This document shows positions 3,001 to 6,000 of a DNA stretch of 48,511 nt, piece after piece. Made by a program: the position numbers. The stretch's first letter is position 1. Every line of letters starts with the position of its first letter. This DNA comes from a virus. Taxonomy: Duplodnaviria > Heunggongvirae > Uroviricota > Caudoviricetes. The stretch lies in IMG/VR virus record IMGVR_UViG_2718218396_000006; one strand, given 5' to 3'.

Positions 3001-6000
3001 CTTTGTGTTGTGGGAAATAGCCAGGGCAGTAACAGCAGGCAGTTCTTCAGCTCGTGCGATATGTAATGCCTGAAGTTCTTCCCGTGAAACGTGCGTTACC
3101 GGTTTTTCGCTGCCATGTTGCGCAAGCCAGCGAATGGGCAGTTCCTGACCGGAAATCGGCAGGAGCATATTATCCTCAATCTCAGCCATGTCTTCGCCAT
3201 TGACGTTGGTATTGTCAGTGCTGGCTGGTTTGTCCTGAACTGAGGGGGAAGGCGCTATAAATATCATTGTGATGCCATCTTCTCCGCCTTTTTCATAGCG
3301 GTTGCAGAATTCAGTATCGAACACACCTTCAGGCGGCAGGTCATTAACAATGGGCAAATTCACGCGAACAGGTTTTTTGAAATCCTCTTCGTCAAATCCA
3401 GCATCGTCCATTGCGACAACACCCCGTGATATTGCAACCGATAATTTTTTTGCTGTGCGCCAGTAAAAACCGCCTTTAATCCCAAGGCGTTTTCTGACTT
3501 TGTCATTTTTGGCTTCGTAATACAGTGCAATTTCTTCTTTATCAGTGCTCATTGATAAACCTCATAACTATTTTAAGGTTGTACGAATCCCTGCTATTGC
3601 TGGCATGCTTAATCAACGGGTATGGCGTTAATACGGCTGGCGGGTTATCCAGCCGGTATTTCGTTATTCAGGTACAGCGATACTTTGTTTAACGGGAGAC
3701 ATTCACCGGAAATTTTTTGCTCGTCTCTTGCCTGATGGCAGGATTCTTTACTGGCATAAATTCCGGTAATCACATTCTGTGGCTCACCTGTTATAAGAAA
3801 AACCGTCATCATCAGTGCAAACGCTGAACTCACTGCTGCCCTCCGAAAATGCCAAGTTCAAGAAGGGCAATTCTGGAGAGTATGGAATTATCATTGAGAA
3901 GATAAGGCTCATATTTTCTCATCCTGATGGCGTCTTCAGTAAACTCCCGGTTACTGAGCAGAATACCAATATTAAAACACCCTTCAGACGTATTAACGTT
4001 TGGTAGTGACGTTTCCATTATCGCGTCCTCAACAATGAATTTTGTGATGCAGTGCCTGGTGCCTCCAGGTGACGTTAACCAGTTAACAATTAACGCCGGA
4101 TACAGAGAATCCACCCATAACACTGTTTTTGGTTTTAACTGTTCCGCGTGCGCTTAGCCGCATTCACCGCATCACAAAATTCACTTTAAAAAGGGCGGCA
4201 GAGCAGCCACGGAGTAAAACTGATACCGCCAAACGTCACCAGAAAATTGATAACAGAGGGCGTTGCAGCGGGGTTGTCACTTAAGCGTATGGTCAACCTG
4301 ACAACCCGGTGTCCTCAATGGGGAAGGAATAACCCCGCCATACTTACCGCCGCGCCATTTCGCGGAGTGCCACAACCGGAAGCGCACGTTCGAAGAAATC
4401 TAACGACAAGCCTTCTAAGGGAAAGAGCTTCGCCGTACGCTTTCGCGTTATGCACTGACTTTTCAGGGAAATATCCTTTCAGTAAACTGTCAGTACCGGA
4501 TTCTTATCCGTGTCCGGCGCACGACCACACGTGACAGCGTGTTGGTCTCCATTTTTAACCCAGAACCTCAATGGAGGATAAAATGCCAAACAAAAAAAGA
4601 AATCCGCTTATTGAAAAACAGATTGAATGCCTGGTAAATCAACTCAGGCAATCAGGGTTATTAAAAACTCATTCAGAGTTGAGGCTCACAGAATCAGCAT
4701 TCGACGATAAATTAAATAATGTCCTTTATAATGGCATTATTGATTTTAATCGTTCTGTTGGTCGCCGCGGCCCTGCTGGTGTTTCCTTATAATTACCAGT
4801 CAATCCAGAGTGGACCGTGTTCAGCGTAAATATAACTGTACACATCCAGATTATATTTGTGGTCTGTTAAGAACAGGCCGCAAATACATGCCGAAGCTTC
4901 CAGTGCAGCGGCTCTGTTACTGAATAACCATGTAGCAACATTCCAGCGTTTTTCTGCATCCCAGTCTTTCTCAAGGCCTGATACCATGAAGAAACCGTTA
5001 GTGTTGCCATCAAATAATTCTGTTTCCAAATTTTTAAGCAATGCCTGATGGACTCTTGCCAGGTATTCCGCCGGAATTTCGCCACGAATTCTGATGAGAT
5101 TGTCATAAACAAACATGTTCCCCGCATATGGCGATTTTTCTTTCTTGTTTTTTAAACCAGCATCATGAGCAAACTGATCAATTTCTTCTTCCGTTGGTTT
5201 CGTATTGATGTTTTGCGCTGTCGTTTCTGCAATTTTATTTGCCACACTCTCTGAGTCGTGTTTATTTATAGACGCACAGAAATACAATCCGGTAAACGCA
5301 TCGCGCACATTACGAGCCATATTATCAGTGTCTTTTTTCGTTACCGATTCCAATTCAAGTTCGTTCAGACGATGACGAAGTGTGTGTGCTGCAATCTCCT
5401 GGATTGAAGGAGGTAAATCTTTAAATTCCATCGTCAACCTCATCAGTCAGTGTTTCTGGCTAACCAGCGACGCGCGCCAGCTTCAGTTTTAAACGTTTTG
5501 CTTTTGGTATACGTCATCGCGGTGAACGTACCGTCCTGGTTGGGGAACACGCCACATACCAGAGATTCGTTGTTGCCAAGATTGAGCGTATCCATGTTGA
5601 CCTCATTTCCCCTTAACGCCGGGGTAGCGGAACAAAAACCTGCTGCATAGTTATTAAAGTTGAACCCTGCCGTCATGTTCTTACGCCTCGGGCTGGCTAC
5701 TTAACCCCTGACCACTGCCTGGTAACTCGAAGTATTGCCCTGCATTCTGTGGGGCGGGGTGAGGGAATGAATGAAGTTTAGAAAAGCGAACATTTAAGGT
5801 CAATGTTTTTTTATCAAAACATTTTAAGCAGGCAGCTGTTACGCCATCACTACGATGGCATACAGTTAATCAAATAGATGAGGTTGGTTAAATATCTTGT
5901 TGAATTTTAAAGCATACTCCCAATATGCAAGATAGATCATCCAGCATAATTGAAGGGTAGCGAGGATTCGTGGGGACTAAAAGAATATCCGGCCCTTCTA

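Follow-up and report, generated by a model that had tools for sequence, protein, structure and literature searches.

The 48,511-nucleotide (nt) stretch analysed here (IMG/VR record IMGVR_UViG_2718218396_000006, class Caudoviricetes; below, the window) carries three small open reading frames (ORFs) at 4571-5887, next to a cI-type repressor gene. We believe, with high probability, that this region belongs to a lambdoid prophage of Escherichia coli O157:H7 and forms the promoter-proximal part of its Qin-type dicBF early-left operon. Its variable part appears to be a small mobile cassette consisting of a rare protein domain encoded in the operon and a convergent gene of 69 amino acids (aa) that ends against it on the opposite strand. 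Our best explanation of the region joins this anatomy to a mechanism in which the two products form a cognate pair, one made in the lytic phase and the other in the lysogen; to the combination we assign a probability of about 0.5. The first-pass annotation, made from the sequence alone, had read the region as a translationally coupled two-gene module for exclusion or anti-phage defence, in the position of rexAB or sieB, with a small gene abutting on it.

The three ORFs delimited in that annotation are present: 5443-5676 (minus strand, 77 aa), 4793-5443 (minus strand, 216 aa) and 4571/4583-4792 (plus strand, 73/69 aa). The TGATG overlap of the first two (5441-5445) and the TAATTA junction at which the stop codons of the last two meet (4790-4795) are also found in the sequence. 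The location on the repressor strand about 210 base pairs (bp) below cI is correct, the measured distance between the repressor gene and the 77-aa ORF being 211 bp.

The conserved unit is the C-terminal domain of the second ORF (about residues 100-212) together with the convergent 69-aa gene (4583-4792), a mobile pair arranged tail-to-tail. The domain gene and the small gene stand tail-to-tail in 63 E. coli loci, and in the E. coli loci, which were taken from IMG/VR, the end of the small ORF lies constantly 3-6 nt from the end of the gene for the 212-aa protein (the corrected form of the 216-aa ORF, see below). Two other proteins with the domain, P0141 and P0153, belong to Salmonella and E. 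coli prophages with a P2-like int-C-cox switch, in which the gene comes immediately after cox, with dicB-like genes and recE downstream. An opposite-strand gene of 64-69 aa overlaps their 3' end by 11-53 nt, and the small proteins of these P2-like prophages are 52% (E 7e-25) and 46% (E 3e-13) identical to the 69-aa protein of the window. The domain stands alone in the Salmonella loci L096-L098, as a protein of about 127 aa with the same ATG-GAA start, again tail-to-tail with the small gene. Thus there are three architectures, in which the domain follows the MEFKDL module of the window, follows another N-terminal module with or without an inserted helix-turn-helix (HTH), or has no such module, and the small-gene partner is constant. 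The two genes are strictly co-inherited and diverge in parallel across the different phage backbones. None of 50,697 deposited phage records has the C-terminal domain, and the cassette was found only in prophages and predicted prophage contigs.

What precedes the cassette varies. Before the MEFKDL start, and joined to it by the same junction sequence, stands ydfB in loci L063, L064 and L071 and ydfC in L065, L068 and L077; locus L067 has a ydfB-like gene there and no ydfA at all. Therefore ydfA, which corresponds to the 77-aa ORF, and the 212-aa gene are not a unit, and ydfA is outside the cassette. The survey of related prophages that had been proposed for this position bears out the expectation of a variable slot, in which the 212-aa gene appears to be cargo between ydfA and dicF. 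It does not bear out the pairing of the 77- and 216-aa ORFs as a functional module, since ydfB or ydfC can precede the 212-aa gene and some loci are without ydfA.

The start of the second ORF has to be moved. Its homologues and the phrog_2151 profile all begin at MEFKDL, with GAGG 6 nt upstream, which gives a gene of 212 aa (4793-5431, minus strand) that starts 11 nt past the ydfA stop and has a Shine-Dalgarno sequence overlapping that stop. The TGATG overlap is therefore incidental and results from picking an upstream in-frame ATG; the genes are close, and the supposed coupling disappears because the real starts leave no overlap.

The 212-aa protein thus combines a widely shuffled N-terminal helical module with a rare C-terminal domain. 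Full-length relatives (65-100% identity, without a Pfam domain) are confined to Escherichia and Salmonella, and a profile search of 1.84 billion representative proteins yielded only one further full-length cluster; about 45 of the 54 hits of the profile search align only over residues 1-55/90 and are joined to unrelated C-termini. The families phrog_1363, phrog_9419, phrog_6937 and phrog_33007 match residues 5-79 of the 216-aa ORF only, and P0141 (286 aa) and P0153 (220 aa) match only residues ~100-195 of the 212-aa protein. The ratio of nonsynonymous to synonymous substitution rates (dN/dS) is 0.4-0.8 for the N-terminal module, among whose relatives there are many frameshifted derivatives, and 0.15-0.19 for the C-terminal domain. 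The AlphaFold2 model of the latter has a core predicted local distance difference test score (pLDDT) of 70-80 and the order strand-strand-helix-strand-strand-helix-strand; the domain has an isoelectric point (pI) of 5.3 and no membrane segment.

Some C-terminal-domain proteins of Salmonella P2-like prophages carry an inserted HTH_3 domain (locus L084 at 6001-6861, which is P0141, and loci L092 and L093). Its recognition region, EPSSRYINALAVVLKCESEWLLHG, closely resembles that of the cI repressor of the window, APSSRYISSLAKILKVNENWLLNG. Shorter proteins with the C-terminal domain (217-220 aa) are without the insert.

The 69-aa gene is a real gene and not a chance ORF. The strong Shine-Dalgarno sequence reported for it is confirmed as GGAGG, and the start at 4583 is supported by the PHROG profile, by the Prokaryotic Genome Annotation Pipeline (PGAP) and by the relatives. 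Fourteen members of the protein family (41-88% identity) keep the same length, the SGLLK motif and the RRGPAGVxL tail; dN/dS is 0.12-0.30, with synonymous sites saturated between subfamilies, so that purifying selection acts on this gene as it does on the C-terminal domain. The ORF is intact in 63 of the 74 loci in which the region is present, as 20 distinct sequences, and the only ORF on the sense strand beneath it is a 39-aa fragment. The product is predicted to be basic (pI 9.7) and soluble, with no membrane segment (the maximum 19-residue hydropathy is 0.22 and 1.16 for the 69-aa and 212-aa proteins). Its AlphaFold2 model (pLDDT 82.5) consists of two helices, residues 8-24 and 37-61, with a 12-residue loop and a disordered tail.

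The 88 nt before the ATG of the small gene are conserved between the E. coli and the Salmonella loci and can form a structured leader. Hairpin 1 occupies 4496-4517 and hairpin 2 occupies 4522-4547; CTCCAT at 4547-4552 is complementary to ATGGAG at 4571-4576 of the Shine-Dalgarno region, and this pairing is invariant in 25 leader variants. The stem of hairpin 2 occurs in at least four unrelated sequence versions with the pairing kept in all of them, as judged by folding each sequence separately (RNAalifold mis-registered this hairpin on the MAFFT alignment). Most variants, though otherwise divergent, have a -10-like hexamer (TAAACT, TAAAAT, TATAAC, TATAGG and others) 7-8 nt before hairpin 1. 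The fold z-scores on the plus strand are -2.4 and -3.6, and no Rfam family matches the leader hairpins. On the minus strand the same DNA is part of the operon mRNA. The evidence on the strand of hairpins 1-3 conflicts (G-U versus C-A pairs versus z-scores, the last favouring the plus strand), and the hairpins may serve the small gene, the sense mRNA or both.

The same leader is found before two other families of antisense small ORFs, of 64 aa (phrog_4987) and 59 aa (phrog_17494), each of which overlaps the 3' end of a different sense gene; some loci carry two units of leader and antisense ORF in tandem. The three-hairpin element as a whole (hairpin 1, CGCAC, hairpin 2 and the hairpin of anti-Shine-Dalgarno and Shine-Dalgarno sequences) thus precedes three unrelated antisense small-ORF families. 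It was located at 4495-4582 of the window, at 3462 and 3916 of locus L088, at 3227 and 3916 of L096, in L083 and, on the minus strand, in the K-12 locus L004; sometimes it is present twice per locus, like a cassette boundary.

The 77-aa ORF is an ordinary early-left gene, a homologue of YdfA (DUF1391). The family PF07151 matches it with 102.1 bits against a cut-off of 27.3, over residues 29-75 only, and identity to K-12 YdfA is 88% over the corresponding 49 residues (E 2e-31). The first 27 codons of the ORF are not conserved. Relatives, K-12 included, have 28 distinct sequences there, many without an in-frame ATG before the core start and several with a stop 12-30 codons upstream; the core, beginning with MDT, is constant at 50-51 aa. 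PGAP annotates a 50-aa gene in identical O157:H7 DNA, with GAGG 5 nt before its ATG. The non-conserved extension, the span of the Pfam match, the PGAP model and the GAGG therefore define ydfA as 5443-5595. The proposal that the 77-aa gene is Kil-like finds no support in homology, the ORF being YdfA with a spurious extension. It has no homology to Kil or DicB, and the true dicB homologue lies further down the operon (3830-4018).

Between cI and ydfA, a promoter-like site abuts an exact copy of the palindrome that stands beside cI. The motif TGTTTT-N6-AAAACA has exactly two perfect matches in the 48.5 kb of the window (5804-5821 and 6526-6543) and none in 100 shuffles. A weaker second copy lies at 5776-5794, and further weaker copies are found about 23 bp apart beside the PR-like promoter; the repeat search places the motif in repeat families D2, D4, I1 and I4. 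The unusual -10 hexamer TAAACT recurs in three places: in the PR-like promoter, in the PL-like one and in the candidate promoter proposed for the small gene (4483-4488, plus strand). We call the PL-like promoter because of its position and the adjoining operator, not because of the number of promoter hits. We infer that a repressor-controlled PL drives the genes below it, which would then be early-lytic genes and not genes of an immunity transcript. A putative operator-bearing promoter between cI and these genes, with DicF, dicB, ydfD and recE downstream, indeed indicates an early-left operon and not a rexAB-like arrangement, so ydfA and the 212-aa gene are probably not cargo cotranscribed with cI. 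Behind a PL-like promoter with a cI-type operator they should be off in the lysogen and come on once the repressor has been removed.

The remaining context agrees with the Qin-type assignment. On the minus strand below the repressor the order is ydfA, the 212-aa gene, the small RNA (sRNA) DicF, dicB, ydfD and recE, so that ydfA is promoter-proximal and DicF, dicB and ydfD follow on the same strand; a terminator-like site is found at DicF (4210-4195). DNA homology to the K-12 Qin operon covers 3914-4523 of the window (the 5' end of dicB, dicF and the spacer upstream of dicF) and 5452-5633 (ydfA). The 928-bp block between them, 4524-5451, has no K-12 Qin counterpart, and there is no homology in it to ydfB and ydfC, which occupy the slot in K-12. 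The DNA of 4571-5887 is 100% identical to prophage DNA of many E. coli O157:H7 chromosomes, and at least 80% of it is contained in 564 of 5426 complete E. coli genomes (about 10%). In K-12 the operon is a single transcription unit, read from a DicA-repressed promoter that lies upstream of ydfA (PMC5069750, PMC10448788). This promoter, dicBp, fires spontaneously in a subpopulation of cells (PMC10448788). The growth inhibition after induction of the operon was ascribed to DicF and DicB, and a strain without both grew like the wild type (PMC5069750).

The features discussed above and their neighbours are collected in Table 1.

Table 1. Features of the early-left region of the window and the basis of each assignment
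Feature	Position	Strand	Basis
PR-like promoter, TTGACT-18-TAAACT	6560-6589	+	-10 same as that of the PL-like promoter
cI-type repressor, 212 aa, HTH and S24 self-cleaving peptidase	5888-6526	-	Pfam Peptidase_S24 (8e-13), HTH_3; phrog_4 transcriptional repressor
Left operator, palindrome TGTTTTTTTATCAAAACA, motif TGTTTT-N6-AAAACA	5804-5821	.	identical motif at 6526-6543 beside the cI start
PL-like early-left promoter, TTGACC-17 nt-TAAACT	5775-5803	-	consensus scan; -35 abuts the operator
ydfA homologue (DUF1391), 50 aa, first operon gene	5443-5595	-	PF07151, identity to K-12 YdfA, PGAP
N-terminal helical module, aa 1-90 (MEFKDLP...)	5162-5431	-	common to many small early-left ORFs with unrelated C-termini
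C-terminal alpha/beta domain, aa 96-212 and stop	4793-5146	-	phrog_2151; homologues of the domain in P0141 and P0153
Convergent 69-aa gene, antisense within the early-left operon	4583-4792	+	phrog_4274; PGAP coding sequence; homologues of 41-88% identity
Structured leader	4495-4582	+	hairpins 1 and 2 and anti-Shine-Dalgarno/Shine-Dalgarno pairing; conserved in E. coli versus Salmonella loci
Candidate small-gene promoter, TTTTCA-17 nt-TAAACT	4460-4488	+	inferred from sequence reading
DicF sRNA with terminator	4193-4244	-	Rfam RF00039, 75 bits versus gathering score 48
dicB homologue	3830-4018	-	58% identity to K-12 DicB; named by PGAP in identical DNA
ydfD/DUF1482 homologue	3645-3833	-	45% identity to K-12 YdfD; named by PGAP in identical DNA
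RecE-family exonuclease gene, 814 aa	1108-3552	-	ORF; exodeoxyribonuclease VIII / RecE family in related records

Several further observations concern the surroundings of the cassette. One copy identical over 4571-5887, in O157:H7 strain 3-5-1 (locus L003, NZ_CP038416.1), sits in a decayed prophage with a truncated recE, a truncated cI (113 aa), a frameshifted cro and insertion sequence elements nearby; the cassette and DicB are intact there. Upstream of DicF there is an imperfect long inverted repeat with arms at 4371-4387 and 4435-4452 (minus strand), and the arm at 4371-4387, the downstream one on the operon-sense strand, is about 190 nt from the 3' end of DicF. In K-12 a cut by RNase III yields a 190-nt DicF precursor (PMC10448788), and the position of this arm would fit that cut. 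Further along the prophage are a sok antitoxin RNA (11413-11587, plus strand, Rfam 113.5 bits) and with it, by implication, a type I toxin-antitoxin locus of the hok/sok type, two tRNA genes (15881-15953 and 16057-16130, plus strand) and the small RNA STnc100 (16903-17075, plus strand, 104.7 bits).

Searches for a function of the three proteins gave little. In Pfam, NCBIfam, PHROGs and PADLOC the 77-aa ORF matched DUF1391 only, and the other two proteins matched only PHROGs of unknown function; PADLOC-DB 2.0 had no family for any of the three at E values up to 1. When PDB chains were searched by sequence with the profiles of the two families, nothing was significant, the best match being a nucleoid occlusion protein at E 0.089. 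Fold comparison assigned a function to neither the 212-aa nor the 69-aa protein, and a search with the AlphaFold2 model of the latter gave no PDB match. Literature searches on DUF1391, on ydfABC and on the small RNAs of O157 prophages found nothing on the 212-aa or the 69-aa gene. The remark that no motif could be assigned therefore stands for the 212-aa protein and fails for the 77-aa ORF, which is recognisably DUF1391; the 69-aa protein, too, has no assignable function. Similarly, homology to ordinary early-left phage genes, which had been named as an argument against a defence system, is present for the 77-aa ORF; the 212-aa protein has no assigned function. Two candidate relationships were considered and dropped: YdfB and YdfC show no similarity to the 212-aa or the 69-aa protein, and a role like that of Rop, a helical hairpin that stabilises the pairing of sense and antisense RNA, was left as a speculative analogy after a profile comparison without similarity.

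The mechanism that we have in mind begins with the PL-like promoter and its operator (5775-5821), which on derepression would drive ydfA, the 212-aa gene, DicF, dicB, ydfD and recE. In the lysogen the small gene would be transcribed from its own candidate promoter, against the operon, into an mRNA that would be fully antisense to the early-left transcript and whose ribosome-binding site could be sequestered by the leader. The terminator scan revealed no terminator-like site between the convergent genes; therefore the transcripts should be mutually antisense and their expression reciprocal. Once PL fires, the small gene would be shut down by convergent transcription and by pairing of the two RNAs, and the 212-aa protein would be made. 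The basic 69-aa protein may then be the lysogeny-phase partner of the acidic C-terminal domain, most simply its binder or inhibitor, and the domain itself may act on the host in the lytic phase, as do DicB, DicF and YdfD from the same operon. In the lysogen the small protein would buffer leaky or stochastic firing of PL, as seen for dicBp in K-12 (PMC10448788). Such a cognate pair, with a lytic-phase C-terminal domain and a lysogeny-phase small protein, is proposed tentatively. An interpretation of the antisense gene as an establishment transcript of the PRE/pE type was rejected, because its orientation to the repressor is opposite in the lambdoid and the P2-like contexts.

A number of observations weigh against this explanation. 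The small gene is deleted in locus L077, where the 212-aa gene is intact, and 8 of the 74 loci have a -1 frameshift, the A7 run at 4592-4598 (codons 4-6) being A6 in them, which leaves a truncated ORF of 17 aa. The variation between A6 and A7 could be slippage-based on/off switching or a homopolymer sequencing error; diverged alleles of the gene (AAACAAGCC) are without the A7 run. The small gene is therefore dispensable; an essential antidote to a potent toxin could hardly be lost in this way, although under a repressed PL the loss might do no damage. Hairpin 2 folds more stably in the operon-sense orientation (summed energy -317 versus -268 kcal/mol), and the K-12 Qin prophage keeps hairpins 1 and 2 downstream of ydfC without a Shine-Dalgarno sequence or an antisense ORF; hence the hairpins may serve the sense mRNA rather than the small gene. 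The promoter-like hits of the consensus scan in the region are not above the chance count. Finally, the terminator scan found no terminator-like site between cI and the operon, and some read-through from the cI transcript is therefore possible.

The same cassette can be read as defence with linked self-immunity. The 69-aa protein would be an exclusion or abortive-infection factor expressed by the lysogen from the sieB slot, and the C-domain protein made from PL would neutralise it on induction, a logic familiar from SieB/Esc of P22 and from BstA with the anti-BstA element. The position and orientation of the small gene, which are those of sieB in Rac, would suit such a role, as would the strict co-inheritance and parallel divergence of the pair, the opposite strands, which imply opposite-phase expression, and a slot as highly variable as defence hotspots are. 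However, the soluble 69-aa helical hairpin resembles neither the exclusion proteins, most of which are membrane proteins, nor the known enzymatic effectors; there is no PADLOC or Pfam match, and the small gene is lost or frameshifted in about 12% of loci. We consider this reading rather unlikely. The exclusion or defence system of the first-pass annotation has no homology to any known defence or exclusion protein in Pfam or PADLOC, and an anti-phage role of the region is pure conjecture. A device acting at the RNA level is also conceivable, though improbable. Antisense transcription from about 4495 would act together with the hairpins on the operon mRNA ahead of dicF and dicB, controlling how it is processed, how stable it is or how far it is read through, with the small protein as an accessory RNA-binding or regulatory factor and the 212-aa protein as an unrelated chance neighbour. 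The persistence of hairpins 1 and 2 in K-12 without the antisense ORF, the compensatory changes in hairpin 2 and its preference for the sense strand, the use of the same leader by two other antisense small-ORF families and the basic character of the small protein would all be natural in such a device, as would the location of the element, which follows the last coding gene upstream and precedes the stretch in which RNase III would generate the 190-nt DicF precursor (PMC10448788). It leaves unexplained, however, why the small gene is linked specifically to the C-terminal domain in three architectures and why that domain is under strong purifying selection; moreover, the leader matches no known RNA family in Rfam, and the protein has no sequence similarity to the RNA-binding Rop.

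Two further explanations are less probable still. If the cassette had no dedicated function, the 212-aa gene would be a recombination-made fusion tolerated in defective prophages and the small ORF a conserved by-product. The confinement to prophages and predicted prophage contigs, the weak constraint on the N-terminal module and its many frameshifted derivatives fit this view. It is countered by the dN/dS of 0.12-0.30 found for both the small gene and the C-terminal domain, whose synonymous sites are saturated and whose length and motifs are kept, and by the occurrence of the pair in about a tenth of complete E. coli genomes and on a different Salmonella phage backbone; we hold it to be very improbable. 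The original model, in which the 77- and 216-aa ORFs are a coupled pair, coexpressed with cI like rexAB for exclusion or defence and including a Kil-like small toxin, can cite the location on the cI strand 211 bp below the repressor with no terminator-like site found between, and the close spacing of the genes, the Shine-Dalgarno sequence of the second overlapping the stop of the first. Against it, the 77-aa ORF is YdfA with a spurious extension, the real starts do not overlap, the pair is not conserved (relatives have ydfB or ydfC upstream), a putative operator-bearing promoter separates cI from the genes, and no homologue was found among RexA/B, SieB, Kil and the PADLOC models. The K-12 growth inhibition, ascribed to DicF and DicB and absent from a strain without both (PMC5069750), also speaks against it. 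This model appears largely refuted by the comparison of related loci, and we would be most surprised to see it revived.

Returning to the cognate pair, a wider reading is tempting and, for the present, doubtful: the early operons of enterobacterial prophages may carry exchangeable cassettes of a sense early gene, a 3'-overlapping antisense small gene and a shared three-hairpin leader or boundary. The cassette of the window would then belong to a set of three or more such pairs, the others having the small ORFs of phrog_4987 and phrog_17494. It would combine a lytic-phase effector with a lysogeny-phase antidote, or a defence factor with linked self-immunity, and would be switched by convergent transcription. 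To our knowledge, such an organisation of prophage accessory functions has not been described.

The matter deserves attention because dicBF-type early operons are present in most E. coli genomes, with several copies in O157:H7, and because DicF, DicB and YdfD have effects on cell division, metabolism, the regulation of virulence and resistance to phages. The stretch from ydfA to dicF is a cargo slot, and about one in ten complete E. coli genomes holds the conserved sense/antisense pair in it. Should the two genes encode an effector and its antidote, or a defence factor coupled to self-immunity, they would represent a new protein family pair and a new example of convergent transcription tying gene expression to the decision between lysogeny and lysis; if it is inert, the region is ordinary prophage mosaicism. 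The label of a rexAB-like defence module does not suit ydfA in either case. What is of interest is a narrowly distributed, strongly conserved convergent pair with a modular leader common to other antisense small genes, and 4460-5431, about 1 kb, offers a defined, small and clonable target.

Among known systems, the Rac prophage of K-12 invites comparison by position. There the order is racR, ydaG, ydaF (DUF1391) and then sieB, which converges on ydaF with a 4-nt overlap. The likeness is that of an antisense gene in the early-left operon, below the repressor and near a DUF1391 gene, that touches the 3' end of a sense gene; the convergent sense partner is the 212-aa gene here and the DUF1391 gene ydaF in Rac. 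SieB and the 69-aa protein are unrelated in sequence: SieB is membrane-bound, has 162 aa and is annotated as a superinfection exclusion protein, whereas the gene considered here encodes a soluble basic hairpin of 69 aa. Neither the 69-aa nor the 212-aa protein has a Pfam match or membrane segments, and the resemblance is one of position and orientation only. The small gene may thus be called a positional analogue of Rac sieB and not a homologue. In lambda, rexA and rexB are cotranscribed with cI from PRM and act in abortive infection. Location on the repressor strand immediately downstream of the repressor is common to both; here, however, a putative operator-bearing promoter intervenes, there is no match to RexA or RexB in Pfam, NCBIfam or PADLOC, and the genes run on into dicF, dicB and recE. 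The suggested rexAB/sieB position is therefore apt as far as it denotes a slot for variable cargo with a small gene placed as sieB is in Rac, and probably wrong as far as it implies a rexAB-like immunity transcript.

A type II toxin-antitoxin module is not indicated, since the pair is convergent and matches no family or fold of toxins or antitoxins. Type I toxin-antitoxin loci and excludon-type overlapping transcripts are convergent sense/antisense units with sequestered ribosome-binding sites. The likeness to them would consist in a Shine-Dalgarno sequence that can pair with an upstream anti-Shine-Dalgarno sequence and in a predicted mRNA fully complementary to the opposite transcript. Unlike type I toxins, the small protein is hydrophilic and has no membrane segment, and the antisense partner is the mRNA of a protein-coding operon; no dedicated antisense small RNA is evident at the leader in Rfam. 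The closest counterpart is the dicBF operon of the K-12 Qin prophage, with which the window agrees in gene order, in the strand relative to the repressor and in the DNA on both flanks of the cassette. It differs in having the 212-aa gene and the antisense 69-aa gene in place of ydfB and ydfC, and a full cI-type repressor with an S24 cleavage domain in place of DicA. We thus regard the region as very probably belonging to the Qin-type dicBF operons, with the ydfB/ydfC slot occupied by other genes.

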